Positions 4,502 through 50,247 of a stretch of 64,000 nt of DNA are shown piece by piece. Position 1 is the first letter of the stretch. Each line of letters begins with the position of its first letter. The translations under genes were made by a program, and so were the position numbers. The DNA is from Candidatus Buchananbacteria bacterium (lineage in GTDB: Bacteria; Patescibacteriota; Patescibacteriia; 2-01-FULL-39-33), in NCBI GenBank assembly GCA_041666505.1, contig JBAYGU010000001.1, positions 477-64,476 of the forward strand. Direction: 5' to 3'. Below the pieces are notes generated by a model that saw only the letters and a program-made list of their open reading frames with translations, did no database searches and had not been told where the DNA came from.

Positions 4502-4735
4502 ATGCCAAACCCAGAAAAAATGTCTCCAGTGAAATTTCATGACCCATTAGATGAAGAAAGAGCGAAAAAAGCAAGAACTTATGAGGGCAGCAAAATCAAT
4601 GAAACAACGCCCGACGGCATCCCGGTTTATATTACGCCTAGGCCTGATAAAATGGACGAACAACTAAAGCAACGGAACCAGGAAGATTTCGAGTTGGCGG
4701 AAAAAAACAGGGAATATATTGCGAATGAAAAATAG
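4502..4735 (+). CDS. Small acidic hypothetical protein
   Basis: 77-aa ORF with no recognisable motifs, followed by a hairpin terminator. Confidence 0.3.
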   Translation: MPNPEKMSPVKFHDPLDEERAKKARTYEGSKINETTPDGIPVYITPRPDKMDEQLKQRNQEDFELAEKNREYIANEK

Positions 4736-5979: not shown

Positions 5980-6694
5980 AAATCAAATTTGCCCATACGT
6001 CGTAACCTTTGCCCGAAGGATGAAAATCATCCGAGGCGTATAGCGCCTTATCGGCGCCAAATAAATTTTTTGTCGAATGAATATCGATGGGAGTGATGCC
6101 GAATTCTTTCGCAACTTCGCTCAAGACTTTGTTAAAATTATCAGTTTTATAATTAAAATACAGATTATACGGCGGCAGTAACAATGAATCCGTGCCCAGA
6201 TACGGCAGATTGATCAAGACTATTTTTGCCTTAGTCTTGTTTTTTAATTCGCTTAATATCAAAGTTAAATTCTTACGGTAGTTATCCAATGAGACAAAAT
6301 TATGCAGATCATTAATGCCGATAAGAAGCGTGACTAAATCCGGCTGAGCCTTGACCGCCTCGGCCAACTGATTATCGATGACGTCCTGCGACAAGGCGCC
6401 GGGAATGGCAAAATTCATCAGCTCTACTGAAGTCTGATTGCTCGACATCTTGCCCGCCACAATGGCCGGCCAGGACTGGCCAGTATTATCCGCGCCCGTT
6501 CCATAAGTCAGGCTGTCACCCAACGCGACGTATTTGATATTTTCCGCTTTTTTTTCTGTCGTCATAATGATTGCCTCAGGCTGCTTAAGCTGATCAAACT
6601 TGCTATAAACATGTGCGTAAGCGCGATTAAAATAAACGCCGATTAACACCGCCGTAATTGCCAAGGTTAAAATGATGGCTTTTTTCCTTTTCAT
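5963..6694 (-). CDS. SGNH/GDSL hydrolase, signal-anchored
   Basis: GDSLTYG block I and a DDFHPS catalytic block. It is adjacent to the AT3 gene, as in split OafA-type O-acyltransferases. Confidence 0.7.
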   Translation of the reverse strand: MKRKKAIILTLAITAVLIGVYFNRAYAHVYSKFDQLKQPEAIIMTTEKKAENIKYVALGDSLTYGTGADNTGQSWPAIVAGKMSSNQTSVELMNFAIPGALSQDVIDNQLAEAVKAQPDLVTLLIGINDLHNFVSLDNYRKNLTLILSELKNKTKAKIVLINLPYLGTDSLLLPPYNLYFNYKTDNFNKVLSEVAKEFGITPIDIHSTKNLFGADKALYASDDFHPSGKGYDVWANLIYDAIR

Positions 6695-7508: not shown

Positions 7509-10500
7509 AACTTTTACGATTTTTATCTTTACCTTCTCGCCGTTGATATTGACCGGCTTTTCATCGTTTTCCGCTTCAGCCACGCTATCGGCCAAAACCG
7601 ATTTAAGCAGCTCGGCGGATAATGCCGGATCAGCGAATACCTTACGAGCGATCTCACCGTCGCTATGCCAGCCGATCGTTATGCGGTCTTGGATCGTCAA
7701 CCCGGCATCCTTGCGCAAGCCGTTGATCGTCCTGACCAGTTCCCGCAGCACGCCTTCGGCTTTCAATTCCTCAGTCAATTCAGTATATAGCACGATACGT
7801 ATATTTTTTGAGAAAATAGTGTCTTTAATATTTTCACCACTCAAATTAATAGTATCATTAAATTCAAGGTGAATACTCCGTGGTTTTTCTGAAGATTTTA
7901 TTTCTAAATCTTTTTTAAATTCCACAACCTTAACATTTACTTCATCTGCAATAATTTTTGAATATATTTCATCCATAACCATGCCATAAACTTCAAGTTT
8001 ACTTAATGGCTGACGAATTTTAATCCCATTTTGGGCTCGCGAAGCCAATCCCAGCTCGACAATCTTCTTGACTTGCTCCATCTGCTCCAAAACATCAGTT
8101 CCAATTTTCCCCACTTTGGGCCACTTGGCTAGATGGACGGACTCCAATTCCCCACCAGCCCTCTTGTAAGCTTGCTCGGCGATAAACGGCGTAAATGGCG
8201 CCATGACTTTAGATAATTCCAAGATAGCGTGGCGGAAAGCTGCGATCGCCTGCTTCTTATCCGCTTCATCTTCACCCTTAAAACGATCACGGCTGCGCCT
8301 CAGCCACCAAGTCGAGAATTCATCGATGAATTCCTGGATCGGACGGACGGATCGCGGCAGATCATAAGCCTCCATCGACTTCGTCACCTCCGCGATTAAG
8401 GAATCCAATTTAGCCAGCAGCCACTGGTCCAGGACATTATCGAATTGGGAATTCTTCTCCCCCTTTACGAAAGGGGGAGCTAGAGGGGGTTTTGAAGTGT
8501 CTTCAGTCTTATATAGCTCGTAAAAACTGATAATATTATTGAGCAGCATCACGACTTTCTGCATCGCCTCCTTGACCCCGGCTTCGGAAAAATTCATGTT
8601 CTCGGCCTGCATGACGGGCGCCGATAATAAATAATACCTGAGTGCGTCAGCGCCGTATTTTTCCATGATGACTTCCGGCTCCGGATAGTTCTGCAATTTC
8701 TTCGCCATTTTTTTGCCGTCCTCGGCCAAAACGATGCCATTAACTATGACGTTGTCGAAGGCGCGGCTGCCCTTTATTGCCGAGGCGATCATATGCAGAT
8801 AATAGAACCAAGCGCGGGTCTGATCGACGCCCTCGGCGATGAATTTAGCCGGAAAACTGTGCTCAAATTCTTTCTTATTCTCGAAGGGGTAATGCTTCTG
8901 CGCATACGGCATCGAGCCGGAATCGAACCAGGTATCGAGCACATCGGGGATGCGCTTCATCTCTCCCTGGCACTTATGGCATTTGACCGTAACTTTATCG
9001 ATATGATGCTTATGCAAATCAGTGATTTTCTCGCCGCTGTCATGCTCCAATTCTGCGACAGAGCCATAGACCTTCATCTCGCCGCAGCCGCATTTCCAGA
9101 TCGGCATGACGCTCGCCCAGAATCTCTGGCGAGAAATTGACCAATCCCGCGCTCCCTCCAGCCATTTACCGAACCGGCCTTCCTTGATATGCTCTGGCGA
9201 CCAATTAATATCCTCGGCCAGCTTCATCGCCTTGTCTTTGACGTCCGTAACTTTGACGAACCAGGAAGACGTGGCGTAATTGATCAGCGGCGTGTCGCAG
9301 CGCCAGCAATGCGGATAGCTATGCTCGTATTTTTCCTTGGCGAACAGTAGCCCCTTGCCGGCCAGATATTTGATGATCATGACATCGGTTTTTTGCGTAT
9401 CTTCTGACGGCTTGACGTTCTCGCCGGCGAAGTCAGTTACTTCAGCGGTAAAATTGCCGCTCATGGTAACATTCTGGATGAAAGGCAAATTCCTTTCCTT
9501 GCCCAAGCGCATGTCATCTTCGCCAAAGGCCGGCGCGATATGTACCACGCCCGTACCATCCTCAGTAGTTACAAAATCTGCACTGACGATAGTATAAAGA
9601 TTGTCAATATTATTCAATTTTGCTTTAGCTTCAGCAGATTCATAATACGGAAATAATGGTCTGTATTTCTTTCCGACTAAAGATTGACCAGAAAATTCTT
9701 CAATAATTTTAAAGCCATATGGTTCTAATGCCATTAATCGATTATCTTTAATAAGAATAAATAAACGATCTTTTTTATCTGGTTCTTCGGTATCTAATTT
9801 AATTTTAAAATAAGTCTTTTCTGGATTAACAGCCAAAGCCACATTGGCCGGCAAAGTCCAAGGCGTGGTCGTCCAAGCCAAGACATAAGTGCCAGGTTCA
9901 TCAACTAATTCGAACTTGGCTGTCGCGCTCAGATCTTTGATATCGCGATAGCCTTCGCTGACTTCCTGCTGCGACAAAGTCGTCTCGCAGCGCGGGCAGA
10001 CATGCATTGATTTGTAGCCTTCATAAACCAAGTCCTTATCGTATAGTTCCTTGAACACCCACCAGACGGTTTCCATGTAATCCAGATCCATCGTCTTGTA
10101 TGGATTATCCATATCCGCCCAGCGGCCGAATCTGCCGATCGTAATTTTCCACTCCTCTGTATATTCCAAAACCTTACTGCGGCAAGCCTCATTGAATTTA
10201 TCCACGCCGTATTTGAGAATGTCCTTTTTCGATTTGAAGCCGAGCTGCTTCTCAATAATGTTCTCGATCGGCAAGCCGTGGCAATCCCAGCCCCAGCGGC
10301 GCGCGACATGGTAGCCCTTCATAGTCCAATAGCGTGGTACGACATCCTTCATGGCGCTGCCGACCAAGTGGCCATAATGCGGCGTGCCGGTGGCGAAAGG
10401 CGGACCGTCGTAAAAAGAATAAGCCGGACCGTTCTTGGTCTGCTCCAAAGACTGTTCAAAAATTTTGTTCGTTTTCCAAAATTCCTGGACTTCATGCTCA

Positions 10501-23805: not shown

Positions 23806-24990
23806 CTAGAACTTCACAGTTCCGCTAATTGCACCTGTCCAGACGTCAGCAGAAATTTCCCGGCCGTCAGCCTTATTGCTGCCCCAGCCGCGGGAAAGTC
23901 CCACTGTCAGGTCCCACGACTTCGCGATTTGATAATTGAGCCGACCGGCGACAAACACTCCGTCCGTATCCGGCGTCATGAAGTCCGCCGTCTGGTCAGG
24001 AACTGCTGCGGACATATAGCCCGTGCCGCCGCCGATCGTCAGGCGATCATTCACTTTGTAACTAGCGCCGACTCGGGCCGCCCAATTATCCGCCCAACCG
24101 GTCTTGACCGGCTTGGTGAACGTGAGCTTGTCGAATTTGATATCGACCGACTCCAACGAACTCTTGGAGTAGCCGTACCAAGTCCAATCAGCCACTAAGA
24201 GCAATCGATCAGTCGCCTTCCAAGCTCCGGAAACTTCGAGTTCGTCCGGAAATTGGAAATCAGCTTTGATCTCATCCCGCAAATGGAACGGACTCAGGAT
24301 TTCCGTGCGGCCATTCAAACGCGCCTTAATGCTCGAAGTATAATTCATTCCGAACGCCCAATTCTCATTCGGCTGATAAAACACGCCAACGGCCGCGCCG
24401 ATTCCGGCTCCGATCGCTTTCGTGTCCGTCTCGATCGGCAGGTTATGCCGATTGATGTCGAATGGCCCGTGCCACGTCAGCATAGTGTCGGCAATTATCA
24501 AGCCGAGTCCGATTGACCACTGATCGTTTAATCTCTGAGTAACGTACGGTTCAATGTACGTCCCGGATATAAGAGTCCGAGAATCTATCCTGCCGAAGCT
24601 TTTTTCGAAGCTCGCACCCATGCCGAATTCCGTCCGGATCTTCAAGCCGGTGACGGTATCGCCATCGACCCTTTGAGCCCAGCACAGATACGGCAATGTA
24701 TGCGCCACGTTCTTCGACTCAATAGTTCGACCAAATCGATCCGTAATACGGAATTTCGGCACCATGGTTTCGAAACCGAATTCCAATTGGCTGCCATCAA
24801 TCTGGATCATACTGCCCAGATTCTCCGGCAGCCATGGTCCGTCCGGATTCGAGCCATTGCCGACACCTGTCGGCCCAGTTACAGCCAAGCGATCCAATCC
24901 TCCGCCATAGGCCAAAGGATTAAACATTACGGCCATAATGGCCAAAAGTACCAACAAAATTAACTTTACTGAATTGTAATGAACTTGCAT
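23806..24990 (-). CDS. FadL/OmpP1/TodX-like outer-membrane beta-barrel protein
   Basis: Signal peptide, amphipathic beta-strand periodicity and a C-terminal ...ISGTVKF ending in Phe. GC of about 56% far exceeds neighbouring genes. Confidence 0.55.
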   Translation of the reverse strand: MQVHYNSVKLILLVLLAIMAVMFNPLAYGGGLDRLAVTGPTGVGNGSNPDGPWLPENLGSMIQIDGSQLEFGFETMVPKFRITDRFGRTIESKNVAHTLPYLCWAQRVDGDTVTGLKIRTEFGMGASFEKSFGRIDSRTLISGTYIEPYVTQRLNDQWSIGLGLIIADTMLTWHGPFDINRHNLPIETDTKAIGAGIGAAVGVFYQPNENWAFGMNYTSSIKARLNGRTEILSPFHLRDEIKADFQFPDELEVSGAWKATDRLLLVADWTWYGYSKSSLESVDIKFDKLTFTKPVKTGWADNWAARVGASYKVNDRLTIGGGTGYMSAAVPDQTADFMTPDTDGVFVAGRLNYQIAKSWDLTVGLSRGWGSNKADGREISADVWTGAISGTVKF

Positions 24991-25137
24991 TTCTTTTCTC
25001 CTATTTCTCTGCTATTTTAGCAGTTTTTGACAGCTACCAACAGTTATCCACAATATTCTGACTAACATAAAATTATAGCAAATAATAACACTTTTGTCAA
25101 TGAATGATTAAATATTTACTAATTTTACGCAAAAAAA

Positions 25138-25164
25138 CCGCCGAATCGCTTCGGCGGCCATGAA
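25138..25164 (-). terminator. Rho-independent terminator (CCGCCGAA-tcgc-TTCGGCGG + T-run)
   Basis: Perfect 8-bp stem. An identical copy lies at 30073-30099. Confidence 0.6.
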
Positions 25165-25166
25165 TG

Positions 25167-25862
25167 TTATTTCTCGCTTTCCAGTCGAGCTTTTAATAAA
25201 AATATCGTATCGGTTCGCAATTTCGCTCGAGCCCAATCTTTTTGAGAAGCCGTCAACATCTCTCCCAGGCCATCGAGAATATGGCGATTGTCCATCTTTT
25301 CCAACATCTTAATGCATTTAGCTACAACTTCCTCAAAAGTCAGCTTAGCACGATTTTCCACTAATTTCTTATTGATCGGCCACATGTTTTTGGCAAAAAA
25401 ATAAACGTCATAGACATCGCGACTCGTCTTGCCTATCCTCTCATACATCGCCATGAGTTTATTGGCGAACATATCTTCCTTAACCATAACCGGCATAGAG
25501 ATGCCCAGCAACGTTTTCACTTCGTATTTCGATCCGAAATTCCGTCGATTGACTTCGATTTTTATATTCTGAGACTTCAAGTCATGCGCGATAATAACGA
25601 TCAGATTAAATCTCTTAATCTTGGAATCAATGATCTTACCGTAGCCTGCGGCTATCTTTTGGATTTTTTCAAACACTTCCTTTTCCTTATCAACAACCAA
25701 AAGATCAAGATCGATATCGACGGAGTTGCGATCCAGGCCGTAAAACATCAAAGCCGCCGTTCCGCCTTTAAAACCCAAATACGGGGACAGCGAAGTGTCA
25801 GAAAAAATATCTTTCAATATCTGCAATAGAATATTCTTATGTTTGGGATAGTCTAATGTCAT
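25167..25862 (-). CDS. abiEii: AbiEii/AbiGii-family nucleotidyltransferase toxin (type IV TA)
   Basis: Hallmark LGFKGGTAALMFYGLDRNSVDIDLDL. Confidence 0.7.
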   Translation of the reverse strand: MTLDYPKHKNILLQILKDIFSDTSLSPYLGFKGGTAALMFYGLDRNSVDIDLDLLVVDKEKEVFEKIQKIAAGYGKIIDSKIKRFNLIVIIAHDLKSQNIKIEVNRRNFGSKYEVKTLLGISMPVMVKEDMFANKLMAMYERIGKTSRDVYDVYFFAKNMWPINKKLVENRAKLTFEEVVAKCIKMLEKMDNRHILDGLGEMLTASQKDWARAKLRTDTIFLLKARLESEK

Positions 25863-26476
25863 ACGGTTTGAATGTTATCCAGTTTATCGTTTTTATAATA
25901 ATTGAAATATTTTTCAACTTTCTTAGCCATTCTTTGATTGCGGTAAATCGGCAAAATTTCAAAAACTTTTTTCCAGTCCAAAACGCTCAGATTGTCGAAA
26001 TGATAATCCTTGCTGATATATATCCGATCCAAAAATGCCCGCTCTTTTGTCGCGACAGCCACGCCATTTACATGCTCGATCCCCGCCGTATTGCTCAGAA
26101 CAAAATCCTTCATCCTGATAAACGATATTTTTTGCCCGTCCGCCTCAATCTCCCTCGTAACATAGGAAGCAACAAAAATATTTCCGTAATACTGGAAATT
26201 CACTCCGGTCCGAGTCAAGACTGTTTCAAAACTGACATAAGAGGGAGTATAGATCCGCGTAGCCAATTCAAAACGATCATAATTCTTATCCTTGGCATAA
26301 ATGCCGCGATGGACCCTGATTAATTTTCCCCTTTTTACATAATTGCTCAATCTAACCCTGATTTTAGCCTCTCCTATTTCACCCCACAGCAAAGAAATGT
26401 CTTTTGTGGAAAAGACAGTTTTTGGCGATCTGAGCAACATATCGATATATTGGCCTTTTGTGAGTTTATTAACCAT
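25859..26476 (-). CDS. abiEi: AbiEi-family antitoxin/transcriptional regulator
   Basis: RGKLIRVHRGIYA signature of the AbiEi N-terminal domain. It overlaps the toxin by 4 nt. Start is taken at MVNKL (26476) rather than the longer track ORF ending at 26545. Confidence 0.65.
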   Translation of the reverse strand: MVNKLTKGQYIDMLLRSPKTVFSTKDISLLWGEIGEAKIRVRLSNYVKRGKLIRVHRGIYAKDKNYDRFELATRIYTPSYVSFETVLTRTGVNFQYYGNIFVASYVTREIEADGQKISFIRMKDFVLSNTAGIEHVNGVAVATKERAFLDRIYISKDYHFDNLSVLDWKKVFEILPIYRNQRMAKKVEKYFNYYKNDKLDNIQTV

Positions 26477-26517
26477 ATACTTACTAGATGTTAGTTTAAA
26501 ACTTACTAACAGTACAA

Positions 26518-26545
26518 TTATAGCACATATATAAAATATATGCAA
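26518..26545 (-). promoter_or_regulatory. Putative sigma70-type promoter for abiEi (TTGCAT-16/17-TATAAT)
   Basis: On the minus strand, TTGCAT lies at 26545-26540 and TATAAT at 26523-26518, about 45 nt upstream of ATG 26476. The recurring TTTTTGTCTAAAATTAGCTAA motif lies immediately upstream. Confidence 0.35.
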
Positions 26546-26591
26546 GTATTTAATAATTAGCTAATTTTAGACAAAAAGATACCAGAATTAA

Positions 26592-28046
26592 CTAATGCCT
26601 CATTTTCGATGTAAATAATCTGGTCGGTTCAAAATCAGTCTGAGCAAAATTAATGCCCAATTTCATCAGCCACACAAAATATATTACTCCCGGATCATCT
26701 CTAAGTTGTTTCGCTATGAATTTGTCCACCAGATTATCAACCGCTTTCACGCTCAATTTATCAGAAAAGCTCGGCAGTTCTTTGGTCAAAAAATTTATGA
26801 TATTTGTATTGAACTCACCCTTATCCAAACGATCCAATTGAGAGGCAGCAAAATCATAATGCGGATTCAATTCCAAAGCCATATGTAATAATTCCTCTCC
26901 GGCGGGATTGCCTGCAGCCAACATAGACGATCCTTTATTGGCAAATAAGCGATAAATTTCCCGATCGGTTGTTTTTGATGATAATAATTCCTGGAAACCC
27001 TTATCATATGATTCCATTGCCAGCCCTGGCTTTCCCTGTTTAGTAGCTTTCATCGCTTTCTCCGCATAATCCATCCAGCCTTCAGAACTGAATATCCCGC
27101 TAATATAACGAGGGGTTGATTGATCGCGATCCGGCCTGACTTTCCCCTTCATCTCATGCGGGCATTTACCACTAAGTGATTTATGCGGGGAATAATTGCT
27201 AAGATCGCAAGACGCTTTCACCAATAAATCCATGTCATCTTTTTTCAGGTCATGATGAGCCAAACCCATTAAGATCGAAATAGGGAAAGTCGCTAAATCA
27301 TCATTAGCGGTTTTATTAATCCATTTCTTGACTTGACTCACAGAAACAAAAGGCGAGATGCCGCATACATTAAAGGCTGCCTCCGCTTGCTTTTCTGCCT
27401 TTTGTTCGTTCATCGTCAGATCAATTTTGTCGCTTGCATTTTCCGCCTCATCGGCTTGCTGTCTGCCAGGCTTATAAAGAATTTCATAAACCACCTGGGG
27501 CGTTATAATATCACCAGATTTCCTAAAATATTTTTTTGCCTGCTCGGTCATCATTGTATCCAGCATTTGGCATGTGCCACTGGCGAATTCATAACGTTCT
27601 CCGATCTTAGCTACTCGACAAATAATCGTCTGACCCGGAAGAAGCAATCTGGCTCCCGCATATTCCCGCACCGCATACTCCTTATCCTGTTGCAGGCTTT
27701 CAACTTCTATCCGCCCGGGTTTGACTGAGGTGACAGAGAAAAAACCATATTCATTATCTAACATATCCCTTAAATCCGATAATTCATTATCAGTTAACCT
27801 AAGAGGATTATTTTTAACAAAATCAGACAGCGGCGTCTTGCCATTAGACAGCTTGAAATCAAATACCAGCCATTCCATAAAAAGCATATTAACCGGATCC
27901 ATGTCATCATCGGCAATCAAATCGCCATCTACGACATCACCAATGGAGCGGCCAAAAAATTCCAAACTTGCTCTTTTAATATCCGCATTACGCCCGAGAT
28001 CGTAAAGATAATGATCTAGGACGTCAGAAATTGCATTTTTTCTCAT
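26592..28046 (-). CDS. Hypothetical 484-aa protein with C-terminal TPR-like repeat, flanked by AbiE modules
   Basis: No recognisable catalytic motif; positioned between two type IV TA pairs. Confidence 0.4.
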   Translation of the reverse strand: MRKNAISDVLDHYLYDLGRNADIKRASLEFFGRSIGDVVDGDLIADDDMDPVNMLFMEWLVFDFKLSNGKTPLSDFVKNNPLRLTDNELSDLRDMLDNEYGFFSVTSVKPGRIEVESLQQDKEYAVREYAGARLLLPGQTIICRVAKIGERYEFASGTCQMLDTMMTEQAKKYFRKSGDIITPQVVYEILYKPGRQQADEAENASDKIDLTMNEQKAEKQAEAAFNVCGISPFVSVSQVKKWINKTANDDLATFPISILMGLAHHDLKKDDMDLLVKASCDLSNYSPHKSLSGKCPHEMKGKVRPDRDQSTPRYISGIFSSEGWMDYAEKAMKATKQGKPGLAMESYDKGFQELLSSKTTDREIYRLFANKGSSMLAAGNPAGEELLHMALELNPHYDFAASQLDRLDKGEFNTNIINFLTKELPSFSDKLSVKAVDNLVDKFIAKQLRDDPGVIYFVWLMKLGINFAQTDFEPTRLFTSKMRH

Positions 28047-28082
28047 ATTTTTCGTTATGATTATTCTTGTATGATTACAGGC

Positions 28083-29372
28083 CTACTTCAACAGATCATC
28101 CAGCTCGCAAGACAGCAAGGCGGATTTATTTAGCAAGATCTGCTCATTGGGATTCAGATTATCCGCAGTCATCCGAATAAGCTTGGTGGTGATGCTGTCG
28201 CCTAACATAATCCTGCCGGTTTTCTTGAAATATTTCTCTGTCATTTGAAAAAAGTGGGTCGCATACTGTTTGAGAACTTCCTGCGGAGCGAGCCGACTAC
28301 TTATACCGTTATTCGTAAATTCTGTAATCTTCATTAAATTATCATCTATCATATTATTCATTTTACCATCTGTCGCAATAATCCAATCTTCATCAATCGC
28401 ATATTTAACAAGAACAATTTTCCCATCATCTGTTTCATACAAAAATTTAAACAAAAAAATATCCTTAAACATATCCTCAAAAATTACCAACTTTTGAAGA
28501 ATTTTAATATCTCTAATTTTATATTCATCCAAAAGACGCAGATAGCTCTCTCGCCAATTCTTTAACCAATTGGCAATGAAAGCCTGATCCAAGAAAAGCG
28601 GGGTCAAATCATGTTTGAGATTGGCATCCGTCTTCGGACTGTTTAAAATTTTTATCGTAACCTTGTCGAATAATTCTTTCGGATTCTTAATATCGATACC
28701 TTTGGCGATGAGATAATCGAAATCAGGCACGATTTTTTTGCCCATATACCACAGCAGGTCATAAATATCGCGCCCTTTTTCTTCATAAATTTCTTTCCCT
28801 GTCCCGCGAGAGCCGCGCAGAAAAATTGCGGCTAATTTGCTTGCCATGAGCGCACCCATATTATATGTCCAGATGACAAATGACAACTGTCCGCGATTTA
28901 TCGGCTGGCGGTCAATTACGGTTTTAGAAGCGGCAAAATGATTCAAATCAATTTTTACGTGGATCTGATCCGAAGGCCAGCCAAGGCTAAGTTCCTTGCC
29001 GACATGGAACTTCAAGATCAATCCTCTGCCGGCAGTTATTTTTAACGTTAAGAAACCGGCTCCGGCTCCATATGTATTTGCAAAATAATCTTCAATCTCC
29101 CTTTTCAATTCGCCCAAAAATTCCTCTGTCACCTCATGAGAAACCTCAAAATCCAAATCAACCGACATACGATCCAGGCCATGGATTATGCGCAGCGCGG
29201 AACCGCCATACATGACCCAATCGCCGTATTCCTGATGATGATAAATAAAATTCAGGACATAAAACTGCAGCTCTTCTTCAAGGGCGTTAAGGCGCGTCTC
29301 GGCATCGATACCGCCATAAGCTGACAGGCTCTCGATTTTCCTTTTCAAAATTGCGATTATCTGTTCGCTCAT
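28083..29372 (-). CDS. AbiEii-family nucleotidyltransferase (second, 429 aa)
   Basis: VMYGGSALRIIHGLDRMSVDLDFEV. Confidence 0.65.
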   Translation of the reverse strand: MSEQIIAILKRKIESLSAYGGIDAETRLNALEEELQFYVLNFIYHHQEYGDWVMYGGSALRIIHGLDRMSVDLDFEVSHEVTEEFLGELKREIEDYFANTYGAGAGFLTLKITAGRGLILKFHVGKELSLGWPSDQIHVKIDLNHFAASKTVIDRQPINRGQLSFVIWTYNMGALMASKLAAIFLRGSRGTGKEIYEEKGRDIYDLLWYMGKKIVPDFDYLIAKGIDIKNPKELFDKVTIKILNSPKTDANLKHDLTPLFLDQAFIANWLKNWRESYLRLLDEYKIRDIKILQKLVIFEDMFKDIFLFKFLYETDDGKIVLVKYAIDEDWIIATDGKMNNMIDDNLMKITEFTNNGISSRLAPQEVLKQYATHFFQMTEKYFKKTGRIMLGDSITTKLIRMTADNLNPNEQILLNKSALLSCELDDLLK

Positions 29373-30004
29373 ATGAGTATATTTTTAACAAATGAATAAA
29401 ATTTTTCCTGCTCTTCGATATCCATCTCGTCAAAATCAATGCGCAATTCCTCGATCATTGGATCAATATCTTCCAGCTTAATGCCGCGGAACTGGCGAGT
29501 TCTGAAATACAGAAGATCAAATAATGCTTTCGCCGGAGAAGCGATAAAAAAATCAAACCCCCCTGCATCAGATCCAGGCCTTCCCGTTACTAAGTGAAAA
29601 TCAGAAAAGAGCTCTTTTTTAATCGACTGATAGGCGAAATTGCCCGCCTTGGCCTGATAATCCTTAGTTACTTTAATGGTTACTGATGTGATAGAATTGA
29701 TCGATTCGGTCGCTAAGCCATAATACTGCAAGGCTGCCCAAGAACTGATATAAGACGGCACACGGATAATATTAGCAAGATAAAATGAATATGAACCGTC
29801 ATGCTTATACTTATCATAAAAAGCAGAGGTTACATATAAACCGTTTTTTAGCTGAAAAATCTCATTATATTTCAAAAATCGGCTGATATATGTGTCAACC
29901 GTGGAATCCTTAAGCCCCAACTGCTTACCGAGCTGATATACGGCGTTTTTATTGAAGTGGGGTAATGTTTTTAACTGCTCAAGCAGGTTTTTCTTGCTTT
30001 TCAT
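29369..30004 (-). CDS. AbiEi-family antitoxin (second)
   Basis: LKNGLYVT and an AbiEi-like C-terminal domain. It overlaps the downstream NTase gene by 4 nt. Confidence 0.6.
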   Translation of the reverse strand: MKSKKNLLEQLKTLPHFNKNAVYQLGKQLGLKDSTVDTYISRFLKYNEIFQLKNGLYVTSAFYDKYKHDGSYSFYLANIIRVPSYISSWAALQYYGLATESINSITSVTIKVTKDYQAKAGNFAYQSIKKELFSDFHLVTGRPGSDAGGFDFFIASPAKALFDLLYFRTRQFRGIKLEDIDPMIEELRIDFDEMDIEEQEKFYSFVKNILI

Positions 30005-30072
30005 ATATATGACATAAGTGTATCATATATGAAACATAATGTCAATACAATAAATATTAGCTGAATTTAGAC

Positions 30073-30099
30073 AAAAAAACCGCCGAATCGCTTCGGCGG
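30073..30099 (-). terminator. Terminator downstream of coaC (apparently identical hairpin to 25138-25164)
   Basis: CCGCCGAATCGCTTCGGCGG preceded by A7 (T-run on minus). Confidence 0.6.
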
Positions 30100-30119
30100 C
30101 AGATAACTGCTAACAACCT

Positions 30120-30704
30120 CTAATCTTCCATTCTCCAATCAGAATGGCCCTCGAAAAGTTTCTGAACGTCATCGATTGCATTAACGATATCGCCGATATT
30201 AGCCATGGCACCCATGCCGATATCGCCGCAAGCCAGCATTTTTTCAACCGGAGGCACAATGACCAAATGCGGATATCGACGCCTCAATCGCTCTAAATGC
30301 TCTTTTGTGAGCCGGTTTTTCCACATGTCAGTGTTCATCGCCGGAGCGATGACAATCGGACGAAACCGAGTCCACGCATAAAAAATGCAGGTTAAGTAAT
30401 TATCGGCAATGCCCAGAGCGAGCTTAGTTAAAGTATTTGCCGTCAGCGGTGCGATGACAAACACTTCGCCCCAATGCTCCATATCGATGTGGCCGACTGG
30501 CCCATTCTTAATAAATCCGCCTGCTGGCCATTCGTCTTTATCTTTGTATATGCCAGCATGCGGCTCGGGAATGAAATACAACGCCGGCGTAGTGGCAACT
30601 ACTCTGACTTCATGGCCGGCGGCCACCATTGCGGCGGCCATTTTGTGAGTCAATGTTGCAGCAGCCACGCTGCCCGTAACTCCAAGAATTATTCGCTTTC
30701 CCAT
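30120..30704 (-). CDS. coaC: Flavoprotein, phosphopantothenoylcysteine decarboxylase-like
   Basis: GKRIILGVTGSVAAA flavoprotein fold. It lies directly after a standalone coaB. Confidence 0.65.
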   Translation of the reverse strand: MGKRIILGVTGSVAAATLTHKMAAAMVAAGHEVRVVATTPALYFIPEPHAGIYKDKDEWPAGGFIKNGPVGHIDMEHWGEVFVIAPLTANTLTKLALGIADNYLTCIFYAWTRFRPIVIAPAMNTDMWKNRLTKEHLERLRRRYPHLVIVPPVEKMLACGDIGMGAMANIGDIVNAIDDVQKLFEGHSDWRMED

Positions 30705-31369
30705 TGCATTGTCTCCCTGATTTTTTCTTCGATTCCCTGGGGCAATCCCCCGCGATCAACTCGAAGTGTTTCTTCTTTAGTCACGATAAACGCATATTCC
30801 TTTGATGTCTCCAAGCAATTGGCGACGATCATGTCGGCATCACTATCGAGCATGCTTTTCTTGGCAATTTCCAAAAGCCGGTCATCGGAAATTCCGACTT
30901 GCAGCTTGAATTTAACCAAGCATTCTTCGTAGCCCCAAGGCTCACGAATTAAATCGACGATCTTCGGCGTCTTGATTAAGCGCAGATATAACACTTCGAA
31001 ATCAGAGGAAATTTTGCCGCTGTTATCCAATTCGATAAGAGCACCGGATTCATTCTGGAAGCAGACTCCGTCGACCTTATAGTCGCTGACAGCCGACGAA
31101 TGAATTACGATATCAAATCGATTGTTGCAAATCTCCTGTTCCATCAATTGGAGCAATTCATCAAAAGTCTGATATCTAATAATGCGATTCAGATTATTAA
31201 CATCAGGAATCAAACCGGGATTGGAAGTCAACAGTGTAACCTCATATCCATTATCGGCAAAATACATCGCGATATTTGTTCCCGTCCGGCCTTTGAAAAT
31301 ATTCGTGATCGCCCGGACCTGATCGATGGGCGTCAAAGTCGCTCCCGCTGTAACAAGTACTTTCTTCAT
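30689..31369 (-). CDS. coaB: Phosphopantothenate--cysteine ligase domain protein
   Basis: KKVLVTAGATLTPIDQVRAITNIFKG DFP-domain N-terminus. Confidence 0.7.
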   Translation of the reverse strand: MKKVLVTAGATLTPIDQVRAITNIFKGRTGTNIAMYFADNGYEVTLLTSNPGLIPDVNNLNRIIRYQTFDELLQLMEQEICNNRFDIVIHSSAVSDYKVDGVCFQNESGALIELDNSGKISSDFEVLYLRLIKTPKIVDLIREPWGYEECLVKFKLQVGISDDRLLEIAKKSMLDSDADMIVANCLETSKEYAFIVTKEETLRVDRGGLPQGIEEKIRETMQWESE

Positions 31370-31393
31370 CTTGCTATCCTCCTGAACTTAGTC

Positions 31394-32263
31394 TCACCAA
31401 GAAATCTTCAAAAGCCTCTGAGCATTGCCGCCCAATATTTTATTCTCATCATCCGGCGAAAGATTCAACGACGCGACGATTTCCAAAGTGTCGCGATAAG
31501 ACTGGATTGGAAAATCCGTCGCGAACATGATACGATCGATGCCGTTGGGCAGTTCGATGAATTGCTTGATCTGACTAGTAATGAATTTCCGATACTCCGG
31601 CGTGTCTTCGGAACTGCCCGAGACGAACTGCCCGGAAATATCAGTCATGACATTAGGGCAATCGATCATCACCTGGCGCAAAATATCGAAATACGGGTTG
31701 GCCAGATGGCAAGCAATGAAGTTGACTTCCGGATAACGAAGAGCCAGAAGCCGCAGACGTTCCGGATTTGCCAAGTGCGCCCTTTCATCCAAGGGGCAAA
31801 GAGGGCGGCCGCATCGGCCTTGGCCGATTACTCTAACATCCTTGGGACAGCAATGATACAATTCGCCCAAATGCATCGCAATCGGCAGATCATATTCCTG
31901 AGCCAGCCGGCAAATTCGCCCGACTGCCCGACAATCCAATTCGAATTTCTGATAACCCGGGTACAGCTTGAAGCCGCTTAAACTCCCAGCATCGGCCATA
32001 ACTTCTAATTCAAAAGTCGATGGTTTATCGGCGCTCAAATCCAGACTGCCGAACATACGAAACAGGCTGTCGCCCATTATCCGCTCGTGCAAATCGAGAT
32101 TAGAAAGCCCTGTGCCCTTGAGCGGAAAATACGTCGCCATCAAGACGATTACCTTGATATAGTACATCTTGGCGTATTCGCGCAGATCATCCAGATCGGC
32201 ATCTGCCGTGTGCAAACCCTTCATTTGATGCCTAGAAGTATGCGCGTGCATATCGATTATCAT
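31394..32263 (-). CDS. Amidohydrolase-2 family TIM-barrel metal-dependent hydrolase
   Basis: N-terminal MIIDMHAHT with downstream His/Asp ligand positions. Confidence 0.6.
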   Translation of the reverse strand: MIIDMHAHTSRHQMKGLHTADADLDDLREYAKMYYIKVIVLMATYFPLKGTGLSNLDLHERIMGDSLFRMFGSLDLSADKPSTFELEVMADAGSLSGFKLYPGYQKFELDCRAVGRICRLAQEYDLPIAMHLGELYHCCPKDVRVIGQGRCGRPLCPLDERAHLANPERLRLLALRYPEVNFIACHLANPYFDILRQVMIDCPNVMTDISGQFVSGSSEDTPEYRKFITSQIKQFIELPNGIDRIMFATDFPIQSYRDTLEIVASLNLSPDDENKILGGNAQRLLKISW

Positions 32264-32364
32264 GGCTTTTCTCCTTCCTTTATCAGTTGTTATTCAAATG
32301 TAAAGTGCAATAGCGCATCTTAAACTATTATCGGAGTTTTGTCAATCAAAAAAACCGGTCAATT

Positions 32365-32472
32365 GGGGCTGTCCCAAAACTCCGTTTTTGGTGATTTTGC
32401 AAAAAATTTTTAGCTAATTTTAGCTTCTGTTTTTTGAAAAATTCCTGAAAAATCGAGTAATGGGACAACCCC
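32365..32472 (+). mobile_element. 108-bp MITE, copy 1 (TIR GGGGCTGTCCC / GGGACAACCCC), TSD AATT
   Basis: Appears identical (by eye) to the reverse complement of 61235-61342 and is flanked by an AATT direct duplication. Confidence 0.7.
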
Positions 32473-32474
32473 AA

Positions 32475-32795
32475 TTAGCCGATTTTTCTCGCTTTCTTCT
32501 CCGCAATCTCTTTTTCCAGCTTCACCGCCATATCAAAATCATCTTCCTTGCGTATCTTGTCATTCCTTACAAAACCGCAGGTTTCGCAGCGATGGCTGAT
32601 GATCCACTCGTGGCGGCGGTAATACAAATCAACCGGCCGCATCATGCCGCCGCAGACAGCGGAGCGATCGCCCGGATCAACGTCGACATGCTTGGACCAA
32701 AGGCATTTGGGGCAATGATTGGTAAAACCGGTGCCTTTGACCTTGTAGCCGCACTTAGCGCAAGTGAAATCTTCGATATTTTTGATAAAAGCCAT
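32475..32795 (-). CDS. RNHCP-domain zinc-ribbon protein
   Basis: CAKCG...TNHCPKC...CETCG cysteine pattern. Confidence 0.6.
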   Translation of the reverse strand: MAFIKNIEDFTCAKCGYKVKGTGFTNHCPKCLWSKHVDVDPGDRSAVCGGMMRPVDLYYRRHEWIISHRCETCGFVRNDKIRKEDDFDMAVKLEKEIAEKKARKIG

Positions 32796-32805
32796 ATTAT
32801 TATTA

Positions 32806-32843
32806 AACCCCCTCTAACTCCCCCTTTCGTAAAGGTGGAGAAT
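32806..32843. repeat. RPE-like half element abutting the RNHCP start codon
   Basis: AAACCCCCTCTAACTCCCCCTTTCGTAAAGGTGGAG. On the minus strand its G-rich arm (GAGGGGG) sits 9-12 nt upstream of the RNHCP ATG as a Shine-Dalgarno. Confidence 0.6.
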
Positions 32844-33012
32844 AATTGTCTTGACAGTATAGCATATCTTTTGATATAATTTCAATACTAATTAAAAGAA
32901 ACCCGTAAAGACTCGAAAAAACGGGGCTCTGGAATGATTTAGGCCAGATAATAGCTATAAGTCAGGCTATCATCGCGTCCATTCAGGGTTAAAATATGGC
33001 TACAATACGAAT

Positions 33013-39679: not shown

Positions 39680-41338
39680 TCACAAATCATTCTAGACATC
39701 ATCAAAGGCAAGCCGCAAAGCGATGCTGATCTTTTTAATATTGTCAGAAAATCCACCGCTGGCCTCAAAATGGCTCCGCCGCCCAAGGCCGTACTGTTAA
39801 AAGCTTACCATAAACTGGCAAAAAGTGGAAAAATAAAATCGAACACAAATATTGCTCAATTACTAACTAAGCGAGCCGTGCGTACTCTTTCCGGCGTAGC
39901 AGTTATTTCTGTCTTAACCAAACCGACAACTTGCCCCGGAAACTGCCTTTTCTGCCCGACCGAGAAAAATATGCCTAAATCATACCTTTCCAACGAACCG
40001 GCGGTCATGCGGGCTATTTTAAACGATTTTGACCCCTTCAGACAGGTCGAAATGCGCCTTAAAGCGCTTAAAGCCAATGGCCACTCGGTAGACAAGATCG
40101 AGCTGATCGTCATGGGCGGCACCTGGAGCTACCATACACCAAAATACCAATCCTGGTTCATCAAACGTTGCTTCGAAGCAGTCAACGGCAAAGAAGCCAA
40201 AACTTTGGCGGAAGCACAGAAAAAAAATGAATCAAGTAAGCACCGCGTCATCGGCCTAACTCTAGAAACCCGACCAGATTATATCGACGAAGAAGAAGTG
40301 AAGCGACTAAGAAATCTTGGCTGCACCCGGGTAGAATTAGGCATCCAGCATATTGACGACAAGATATTGAGATTGAATCGCCGCGGCCACAACACCAAAC
40401 AAAGTATCAATGCTATCAAGTTACTCAAGAATGCCGGTTTTAAAATCAATCTTCATCTGATGCCGAATTTATACGGCTCGACGCCAGCCAAAGATTTAGC
40501 AATGTTTAAAAAAATCTATACTGACGGCAATTACATGCCGGATATGGTCAAAATCTACCCCTGTGTCGTCAATGAGCATGCCGATTTATACAAATTATAT
40601 AAGCAGAAAAAATATAAGCCCTACACGCAAAAGCAATTGACTGATTTGATAGTCAAAATAAAAAAAATCACTCCGCCCTGGGTGCGCATCGCCCGATTGA
40701 TCCGCGATATTCCCGAGGAATCGATTGTCGCCGGCAACAAGACGACTAATCTGCGGCAGCTAATAGCGCTCACCGCATCTAAGGATGGCTGGAGCTGCAA
40801 GTGCATCAGATGCAGAGAAGTCGGAAGATCACATAACATGGAACATGGAACATTAAATGCAAAATTAGTCAGTAGAAAATATCAAGCAAATGGCGGTACG
40901 GAATATTTTTTAAGTTATGAATCGCCCGACAAAAAAATTCTTTATGCCTTCTTGAGGCTTCGGATCAAACCCCCTCTAACTCCCCCTTTCGTAAAGGGGG
41001 AGAAAAACTTCCTAACATCAATTCAGCAAGGGAACGATTCCTCCCCTTTACGAAAGGGGAGGCTAGGAGGGGTTTATCTGCCTGAACTAAATGGAGCAGC
41101 CTTGATCCGTGAGCTGCATACTTATGGTCAGGCGACGGAAATCGGCTCTAAGGGCAAAGTCCAGCACCTCGGACTGGGACAAAGACTACTTTCGGAAGCA
41201 GAAAAAATCACCCAGCAAAATAACTTGAATAAAATTGCTGTCATTTCCGGCATCGGCGTCCGCAGTTATTACAAGAAATTCGGCTATAAACTCGAAGGGA
41301 CTTATATGGTGAAAAATTTAACAAAAAAGACAAAATAA
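39665..41338 (+). CDS. elp3: Elp3-like radical-SAM / GNAT acetyltransferase (tRNA wobble-uridine modification family)
   Basis: CPGNCLFCP radical-SAM cysteine triad and a C-terminal GNAT (QHLGLGQRLL). Carries a ~37-aa repeat-encoded insert. Confidence 0.8.
   Translation: MPEIHSQIILDIIKGKPQSDADLFNIVRKSTAGLKMAPPPKAVLLKAYHKLAKSGKIKSNTNIAQLLTKRAVRTLSGVAVISVLTKPTTCPGNCLFCPTEKNMPKSYLSNEPAVMRAILNDFDPFRQVEMRLKALKANGHSVDKIELIVMGGTWSYHTPKYQSWFIKRCFEAVNGKEAKTLAEAQKKNESSKHRVIGLTLETRPDYIDEEEVKRLRNLGCTRVELGIQHIDDKILRLNRRGHNTKQSINAIKLLKNAGFKINLHLMPNLYGSTPAKDLAMFKKIYTDGNYMPDMVKIYPCVVNEHADLYKLYKQKKYKPYTQKQLTDLIVKIKKITPPWVRIARLIRDIPEESIVAGNKTTNLRQLIALTASKDGWSCKCIRCREVGRSHNMEHGTLNAKLVSRKYQANGGTEYFLSYESPDKKILYAFLRLRIKPPLTPPFVKGEKNFLTSIQQGNDSSPLRKGRLGGVYLPELNGAALIRELHTYGQATEIGSKGKVQHLGLGQRLLSEAEKITQQNNLNKIAVISGIGVRSYYKKFGYKLEGTYMVKNLTKKTK
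40967..41075. mobile_element. Full-length ~109-bp palindromic mini-element (RPE-like) inserted in-frame in the elp3 GNAT domain
   Basis: Terminal inverted repeats AAACCCCCTCTAAC / GCTAGGAGGGGTTT and two internal stems CTCCCCCTTTCGTAAAGGGGGAG / CCTCCCCTTTACGAAAGGGGAGG. The ORF stays open across it. Confidence 0.7.
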
Positions 41339-50037: not shown

Positions 50038-50110
50038 TTCATCAGCTTAACTTATTATCGGTATTCTGTCAAACTAATAATTATGATATAATTTACTTAT
50101 TAGATATTTT

Positions 50111-50224
50111 CCCTCCCCTTTTTTCAAAGGGGAGGCTAGGAGGGGTTTTGTTGGAATTAATTAAACCCCCTTTCGATGCTCCTTATGGTCGCATCCGAAT
50201 CCCCCTTTGAAAAAGGTGGAGAAT
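50111..50224. repeat. Two tandem partial RPE-like units in the intergenic region upstream of the PGI/PMI gene
   Basis: CCTCCCCTTTTTTCAAAGGGGAGGCTAGGAGGGGTTTT (50111-50149), followed by AAACCCCC...CCCCCTTTGAAAAAGGTGGAGAATAAT (50164-50224). Confidence 0.6.
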
Positions 50225-50247
50225 AATGCAACTCAATAATTAAATCT

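Follow-up and report, generated by a model that had tools for sequence, protein, structure and literature searches.

A predicted terminator-promoter unit present in three copies around two AbiE cassettes and an OB-fold/TPR gene in a genome assigned to Candidatus Buchananbacteria

We analyzed 64,000 nucleotides (nt) of a metagenome-assembled genome (MAG) labeled Candidatus Buchananbacteria (assembly GCA_041666505.1, contig JBAYGU010000001.1, positions 477 to 64,476; hereafter the window), in which a segment of five genes lies between coaC and a gene for an outer-membrane protein (OMP). The segment holds two AbiE toxin-antitoxin pairs and, between them, a gene encoding a 484-amino-acid (484-aa) protein, and all five genes as well as both flanking genes are encoded on the minus strand. 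Our best explanation is that this is an accessory segment made of two unrelated AbiE cassettes and an OB-fold/TPR (tetratricopeptide repeat) gene, and that a terminator-promoter unit was duplicated at each entry of a cassette; we place the probability of this reading at roughly one half. The components are ordinary, with two exceptions: the 484-aa protein belongs to a family that is widespread but undescribed, and one terminator-promoter unit is used three times, which is unusual.

The evidence begins at the borders of the segment. A repeat search aligned positions 25109-25158 with 30051-30100 as a direct repeat of 50 nt that is 88% identical, and its last 29 nt, CAAAAAAACCGCCGAATCGCTTCGGCGGC, are the same in both copies (25130-25158 and 30072-30100). 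A 27-nt core of this block occurs exactly twice in the window, against an expectation of zero from 100 shuffles. Identity between the left (L) and right (R) copies does not decay gradually but jumps from 15 of 21 positions in the spacer to 29 of 29 across the T-run and hairpin. Folded on the minus strand, L and R are predicted to form intrinsic terminators of -16.7 and -16.2 kcal/mol, respectively, each with a perfect, GC-rich stem of 9-10 bp, a 4-nt loop and a following U7 run. The similarity extends beyond the T-run into an AT-rich spacer, a -35 element, a 17-nt spacer and an extended -10 element, so that the whole unit measures about 75-90 nt. We defined the units by aligning, on the minus strand, the sequences that precede the OMP gene and the antitoxin genes abiEi-1 and abiEi-2, and this alignment contains a third copy (M), located between the 484-aa gene and abiEi-1. 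The initial annotation had reported an imperfect repeat of about 48 bp with 28 identical base pairs at its end; that description is borne out, at 50 and 29 nt, but it covered only part of a longer unit and two of its three copies.

The three copies share a common layout. The -35 and -10 elements are in register in all of them, and each copy stands immediately 5' of a gene start. L and R are the two best minus-strand promoter-like sites in an 8-kb scan (12/12 and 10/12 matches, both with the extended TG). Unit M forms no stable stem: where the 5' half of the hairpin would lie, the 484-aa gene has its stop codon. When the window was searched by nhmmer with a profile of the three units, they were recovered at E = 1e-15, 4.5e-14 and 6.2e-13, and the next match had E = 0.098. 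As only these three were found, the unit is specific to the locus rather than a generic promoter, and we rejected the possibility that it is a common promoter motif of the genome. We likewise rejected a recent duplication of one AbiE pair, since the two antitoxins are only 23% identical and the two toxins 22%. The promoter units of the same two pairs are 65-72% identical in DNA, a disparity which argues that the unit belongs to the site or to the process of insertion, and not to the cassettes.

We propose that a resident unit, comprising the coaC terminator and the OMP promoter, would have been duplicated each time this single intergenic position took up a cassette. Most likely this would have happened by single-crossover (Campbell-type) recombination of a circular DNA that itself bore a copy of the unit; with no recombinase encoded by the island, such recombination would be RecA-dependent or catalyzed in trans. 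A length of 29 nt is near the shortest identity with which RecA-type recombination still works efficiently, and the 29-nt block may be either the crossover core or a terminator kept by selection. As an outcome, the displaced downstream gene would retain a promoter and every cassette would gain one. In the resulting arrangement, unit R would drive abiEi-2, abiEii-2 and probably the 484-aa gene, unit M would serve as an internal promoter of abiEi-1 and abiEii-1, and unit L would end transcription of the island and restart it for the OMP gene. Since unit M lacks a stem, transcripts from R could also extend across all five genes, the second pair included, and end at L.

Judged by sequence, both pairs are members of the well-known AbiE family on all criteria. 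In each, abiEi comes first and overlaps abiEii by 4 nt (ATGA), and both toxins keep AbiEii motifs I-IV (hGG[S/T], R-x-S-x-D-h-D, KLxAxxxR and RDxYD; definitions from PMC3985639). AbiEi (COG5340) antitoxins characteristically combine an N-terminal winged helix with a C-terminal antitoxicity domain, and AbiEii toxins are nucleotidyltransferases of the pol-beta type. Together with the Pfam (PF08843 for both toxins) and PADLOC matches, this order and these motifs uphold the earlier description of two complete AbiEi/AbiEii modules with 4-nt overlaps flanking a 484-aa open reading frame (ORF). Profile support for AbiEi-1 outside PADLOC is weaker (Pfam AbiEi_4, 1e-05, 26.0 bits against a cut-off of 25; NCBIfam TAA_AbiEi, 1.4e-08, below its cut-off), and AbiEi-2 has no match in Pfam or NCBIfam. 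The PADLOC match of AbiEi-1 spans residues 33-215 as numbered on a 228-aa ORF with a TTG start (25859-26545); we take the start to be the ATG at 26476 and not the TTG at 26545, and public contigs also call a protein of 205 aa. At the position equivalent to the phosphoacceptor T65 of Streptococcus agalactiae AbiEii, an equivalence of sequence position only, both toxins have a serine (10.64898/2026.01.19.700257). The C-terminal ~160 residues of AbiEii-2 (28083-28570) lie beyond the AbiEii profiles, which end near residue 270, and have no sequence match in Pfam, NCBIfam, PHROGs or the PDB.

The pairs thus resemble the AbiE systems of Lactococcus lactis and S. agalactiae and the MenAT systems of Mycobacterium tuberculosis in their DUF1814 toxin, motifs I-IV and full-length AbiEi profile match. 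The antitoxin-first order with a 4-nt ATGA overlap is also that of S. agalactiae AbiE (PMC3985639). A sigma-70-type promoter no more than about 60 nt from the start codon, here a predicted one, is a further likeness to known AbiE (COG5340-COG2253). Unlike known AbiE systems, the island has two very divergent copies 2 kb apart, one toxin with an extra C-terminal region of ~160 residues, a third gene probably on the abiE-2 transcript, and a host that is a MAG labeled as belonging to the candidate phyla radiation (CPR).

Some AbiE systems act in abortive-infection phage resistance, or in plasmid or locus stabilization. By homology, the two toxins of the island would be expected to work as AbiEii and MenT do, which are nucleotidyltransferases that halt translation by extending the 3' ends of tRNA (PMC7450476, PMC10435456). 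AbiE-type antitoxins neutralize the toxin and repress their own operon (PMC3985639, PMC7319586). Palindromes of the CATATATG type, which occur at or beside the -10 element in units M and R but not in the homologous unit L, are candidate AbiEi operators. The initial annotation's label of 'type IV' for these modules is a historical class; a 2026 preprint moves S. agalactiae AbiE to type VII (10.64898/2026.01.19.700257). AbiE is among the commonest defense-type systems of groundwater bacterial MAGs (PMC12259885), and for that reason the pairs add little by themselves.

Table 1. Genes, repeat units and predicted regulatory sites of the segment and its flanks (window coordinates)
Feature	Position	Strand	Description
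Accessory segment	25159-30050		~4.9 kb, bordered by the coaBC terminator and by the predicted promoter of the FadL-like OMP gene
abiEii-1	25167-25862	-	231 aa; DUF1814 nucleotidyltransferase toxin; Pfam AbiEii 2.8e-18, PADLOC PDLC02324 3.6e-72; motifs KGGT...RNSVDID (residues 32-51), KLMAMYER (135-142), RDVYD (148-152)
abiEi-1	25859-26476	-	205 aa; AbiEi-family antitoxin/regulator; PADLOC AbiEi 2.6e-57
484-aa gene	26592-28046	-	In the model: helical N-terminus (residues 1-95), OB-fold barrel (98-166), helical domain (214-300), three TPRs (320-423), C-terminal helices
abiEii-2	28083-29372	-	429 aa; DUF1814 nucleotidyltransferase toxin; Pfam AbiEii 5.2e-19 (residues 49-256), PADLOC 1.8e-24; motifs YGGS...RMSVDLD (55-74), KLAAIFLR (179-186), RDIYD (201-205)
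abiEi-2	29369-30004	-	211 aa; AbiEi-family antitoxin/regulator; PADLOC AbiEi 3.8e-36 (residues 7-197)
Unit L	25072-25159	-	Predicted stem-loop 25159-25136 plus T7, terminator behind abiEii-1; AT-rich spacer
Unit L predicted promoter (OMP gene)	25100-25072	-	Perfect consensus; TTGACA 25100-25095, 17 nt, TGcTATAAT, -10 at 25077-25072
Unit M	26517-26587	-	T-run, AT-rich spacer and predicted promoter; without the 5' half of the hairpin
Unit M predicted promoter (abiEi-1)	26545-26517	-	TTGCAT 26545-26540, 17 nt, TGcTATAAT, -10 at 26522-26517
Unit R	30017-30100	-	Predicted coaC terminator stem-loop 30100-30079 plus T7; AT-rich spacer
Unit R predicted promoter (abiEi-2)	30045-30017	-	Sigma-70-like; TTGACA 30045-30040, 17 nt, TGaTACACT, -10 at 30022-30017
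Palindromes CATATATG / GCATATAT...ATATATGTGC	26500-26545 and 30005-30035		Overlap the spacer or -10 of the predicted abiEi-1 and abiEi-2 promoters
OMP gene (left flank)	23806-24990	-	FadL/TodX-type outer-membrane transporter; Pfam Toluene_X 1.2e-30
coaC (right flank)	30120-30704	-	Phosphopantothenoylcysteine decarboxylase; Pfam Flavoprotein 4.4e-27, DFP 7.8e-29
coaB	30689-31369	-	Upstream of coaC

The protein encoded between the two pairs had been described as having only a C-terminal TPR-like repeat and no known catalytic motif. An AlphaFold2 model built with a 70-sequence alignment (predicted local distance difference test, pLDDT, 90.5; predicted template modeling score, pTM, 0.86) contains the TPRs, as tandem helix-turn-helix repeats of about 34 residues arranged in a superhelix, but it has an N-terminal OB-fold module too. 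The second part of the description agrees with our searches: the protein has no match in Pfam, NCBIfam, PHROGs or PADLOC-DB v2, no catalytic family among them was matched, and the near-invariant residues F30, E58, W59, N80, E128, R144, N370 and Y397 form no recognizable catalytic set.

A word-index search found only four relatives of this protein; a full profile search raised the number to 968 cluster representatives (clusters at 50% identity) with E <= 1e-3, of which 177 had E <= 1e-30. Most members have about 450-550 aa, and some reach about 800 aa with an insert of about 300 residues; some consist of the N-terminal ~190 residues alone, and others are without the N-terminal module. A SecA-type SEC-C zinc motif closes the C-terminus of 26 of the 70 relatives and matches the C-termini of SecA and YchJ in the PDB (E down to 7e-09). 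These relatives share the CxCx8C[H/C]-type motif with SEC-C proteins (the SecA C-terminal tail, YecA and YchJ), but the likeness is limited to about 22 residues, the remainder being unrelated, and the motif is absent from the 484-aa protein (which ends ...FTSKMRH) and from its relatives P0002 and P0003. Matches of relatives to the PADLOC models PDC-S12 and E2 cover only the ~25-residue SEC-C motif, and we rejected them as evidence of membership. A tblastn search of plasmids and phages with the 484-aa protein and its relative P0005 gave no match, viral contigs gave none, and neither did a fold search of BFVD (best E 5e-3).

We next considered where genes of this family are found. In the window, the gap between abiEii-2 and the 484-aa gene is 36 nt and contains neither a terminator nor a consensus promoter-like site, so the two genes are probably co-transcribed; no terminator was found after the 484-aa gene. 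Counting the window, in three of seven contexts the family gene comes directly after a toxin-antitoxin pair and shares its strand, and the pair is of a different family each time. In contigs L004-L007, the gene for P0002 (52% identical) lies 39 nt after a 75-aa gene and a RelE-superfamily (YafQ/HigB-like) toxin gene, and is followed by a convergent HATPase_c_2/DUF4325 gene. In contig L170, the gene for P0152 lies 3 nt after an HTH-Panacea antitoxin gene, a 133-aa gene and a DUF7695 gene. Elsewhere the gene is flanked by genes for an NYN RNase and an MTES_1575 nuclease-like protein (P0014, contigs L175-L177), or is followed by a PIF1-like helicase gene (P0004, contig L009) or an AAA_14/DUF4143 ATPase gene (P0071, contig L171); in L171 and around P0003 (contig L008) no toxin-antitoxin pair lies upstream. 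Nucleases, helicases and ATPases are gene types often found in defense islands. The placement behind toxin-antitoxin pairs is suggestive in this small, uncontrolled sample of seven contexts.

Contig L170 also carries a 58-nt, long-stemmed, terminator-like palindrome in two copies (4611-4668 and 6402-6459, 95% identity), with a 5'-3' exonuclease gene and an unassigned 191-aa gene enclosed between them, a short way upstream of the Panacea-type pair. It loosely parallels the duplicated terminator of the window. We rejected it as a similar cassette border, as it flanks exonuclease-like genes and not a toxin-antitoxin pair with a family gene, and no similar repeats flank the family genes in contigs L004 and L175.

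A third, non-toxin gene that directly follows a same-strand toxin-antitoxin pair recalls the tripartite toxin-antitoxin-chaperone (TAC) operons, such as HigB1-HigA1-SecB-like chaperone of M. tuberculosis. There is a thematic link as well, in that the family's usual SEC-C motif is the element by which SecA binds SecB. Unlike TAC operons, the 484-aa protein combines OB and TPR modules with neither a SecB fold nor SEC-C, and the pairs upstream of family genes come from unrelated families; the likeness is an analogy only. We propose, with low confidence, that the 484-aa protein serves in binding or as an adaptor; its OB module would take a nucleic acid or other ligand and its TPR module a protein or peptide. 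It would then be a non-enzymatic adaptor or sensor, accessory to the toxin-antitoxin pair upstream rather than an independent enzyme.

To look for an unoccupied version of the locus, we combined a search for coaC homologs and look-ups of exact proteins with a synteny check, in which 14 window proteins were compared by tblastn with the fetched loci. Every public contig with an identical coaC, OMP or 484-aa protein carries the island and is of the same strain. Scans of genome and metagenome contigs with coaC yielded further loci; the OMP, methyltransferase and amidohydrolase genes were absent from all of these, and none was syntenic. One contig (L173, Logan SRR28062869) aligns with window positions 30076-31535 at 94.1% nucleotide identity over coaB-coaC, whereas identity to the remaining relatives in coaC does not exceed 55%. 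In this 94% relative the coaC hairpin is unchanged base for base, in keeping with the proposal that the right repeat is the native coaC terminator. The contig stops 3 nt past the hairpin, which may reflect either an assembly break or fork at the repeat or strain heterogeneity at the junction.

How the repeats arose can be read in other ways. One is that a classical mobile element has left the segment behind as a remnant (an integrase island, a prophage fragment or an integron array with attC sites), and the initial annotation had likewise seen in the left repeat an att-type duplication created by insertion. Like islands bounded by att sites, the segment has direct repeats with an identical 29-nt core at its borders and accessory cargo of slightly lower GC content; the further repeat between the cassettes and the single direction of the genes would also fit. 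Yet we found no integrase, transposase or IntI gene among the five island genes, contigs L001 and L172 (~20-58 kb) and ten further ORFs scanned, ARAGORN detected no tRNA or tmRNA in the window, no phage gene was seen, and the repeat core is missing from 2.9 million viral contigs. Unlike att sites, the repeat is a predicted terminator-promoter unit with an internal third copy, and the flanking similarity extends on one side only; unlike the imperfect palindromes of attC, its perfect stem is simple and is joined to a predicted promoter. With three copies of such a unit, a two-copy att picture is too simple, and on the contigs and ORFs scanned we rejected an integron, a prophage or an integrative and conjugative element. 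A classical mobile origin is very improbable. A second alternative, which we consider rather unlikely, holds that the repeats are no insertion scar at all: the segment would be a long-standing resident whose units were duplicated locally or homogenized by gene conversion and then kept by selection. Each unit occupies a position that calls for a promoter, and the positions of L and R call for a terminator as well; no mobility gene was found, all available contigs of the strain carry the island, the GC deviation is modest, and the hairpin is preserved in a relative whose coaBC is only 94% identical. Selection on a stem, however, requires neither an identical loop nor an identical 7-nt run on both sides, nor does it predict the abrupt change in identity between L and R. 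The divergence of the two AbiE pairs further indicates that they were acquired separately, yet they share a promoter unit, and AbiE is distributed widely on chromosomes and extrachromosomal elements (PMC3985639). We therefore favor duplication of the unit at each entry of a cassette, and several observations weigh against it. Neither an empty site nor a recombinase nor a tRNA target was present among the contigs and window searched, so that insertion is read from the repeats alone, and the exact hairpin of the 94% relative means that selection on the terminator could explain the 29-nt identity without recent recombination. The island genes have a GC content of 0.397 against 0.451 +/- 0.032 for the rest of the window, and the five, at 0.38-0.41, are the lowest in the neighborhood, but the shift is below two standard deviations and a glycosyltransferase cluster in the same window is equally low. 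The promoters and the operon structure are consensus predictions, and the promoter scan as a whole returned 21 sites against 19.3 +/- 4.7 in shuffled sequence. Finally, S. agalactiae AbiE gave no protection against 32 phages in Escherichia coli (10.64898/2026.01.19.700257), so a defense role cannot be assumed for any AbiE pair.

The role proposed for the 484-aa gene has a competitor of its own, in which the gene has nothing to do with AbiE or with defense and encodes a stand-alone regulatory or chaperone-like scaffold found in variable regions. We regard this as possible, somewhat short of an even chance. It would fit the SEC-C ending of 26 of the 70 relatives and its SecA and YchJ matches, given that the SecA metal-binding domain binds SecB and ribosomes (bioRxiv 10.1101/613315), and it would fit the confinement of the relatives' PADLOC matches to that motif. 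No partner gene is conserved across the family contexts, and searches of PHROGs, of records from phages and plasmids and of viral contigs yielded no match to the family. Against it, the 484-aa protein itself has no SEC-C motif, the gene lies directly behind a same-strand toxin-antitoxin pair in three independent contigs with gaps of 3-39 nt, and the remaining neighbors are nucleases, a helicase and an ATPase.

Several features of the surroundings deserve mention. The same sequence was recovered in a Joint Genome Institute (JGI) metagenome with 1 mismatch in 16,144 nt, and it is identical in Logan contigs of SRR6484324. On the left side, a methyltransferase gene (Pfam) stands beside the OMP gene. 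The latter has a GC content of 0.526, the highest among the tabulated ORFs of the window, and a third-codon-position GC content of 0.61, among the highest. CPR bacteria are generally held to be without an outer membrane. The OMP gene nevertheless sits in a MAG labeled CPR, with a CPR-typical array of T4SS_pilin genes on the same contig, and could reflect horizontal acquisition or a mislabeled bin. A HicA toxin gene and an 89-aa upstream partner lie next to clpP at ~48.5-49.1 kb (contig L172, 8592-9092), about 19 kb from the island. An element of about 110 nt, resembling miniature inverted-repeat transposable elements (MITE) or repetitive extragenic palindromes (REP), has 38-nt terminal inverted repeats, each arm being a CCCCCTTTCGTAAAGGGGG-type hairpin, and occurs in full or half copies at 40967-41075, 50103-50226, 32802-32845 and 8447-8492. 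Between an RNHCP-domain gene and an amidohydrolase gene, a hairpin-like stretch of about 114 nt (32362-32475) gave the sole match of an Rfam scan of 22-33 kb, a sub-threshold hit on both strands to a plant miRNA-precursor model that is unrelated to the island and is most likely a mere AT-rich palindrome.

Whatever its role, a family that counts nearly 1,000 clusters at 50% identity, has three confidently modeled modules and is missing from Pfam, NCBIfam, PHROGs and PADLOC deserves follow-up. A broader interpretation, which we think distinctly unlikely at present, is that the OB-fold and TPR family, with or without SEC-C, is an accessory that plugs into unrelated toxin-antitoxin modules, that the repeated unit marks a stacking of cassettes, independent of integrases, at a single intergenic site of reduced CPR genomes, or both. 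If so, the family would act as a sensor or adaptor coupling a nucleic-acid or peptide cue, for example a phage product, to toxin release, or alternatively as a third partner resembling the chaperone of TAC systems; a family that modulates toxin-antitoxin modules would be a new kind of third component. The reuse of one unit around separately acquired cassettes merits follow-up too and suggests, as a hypothesis, that small genomes without obvious mobile machinery may add accessory operons without silencing the gene downstream.

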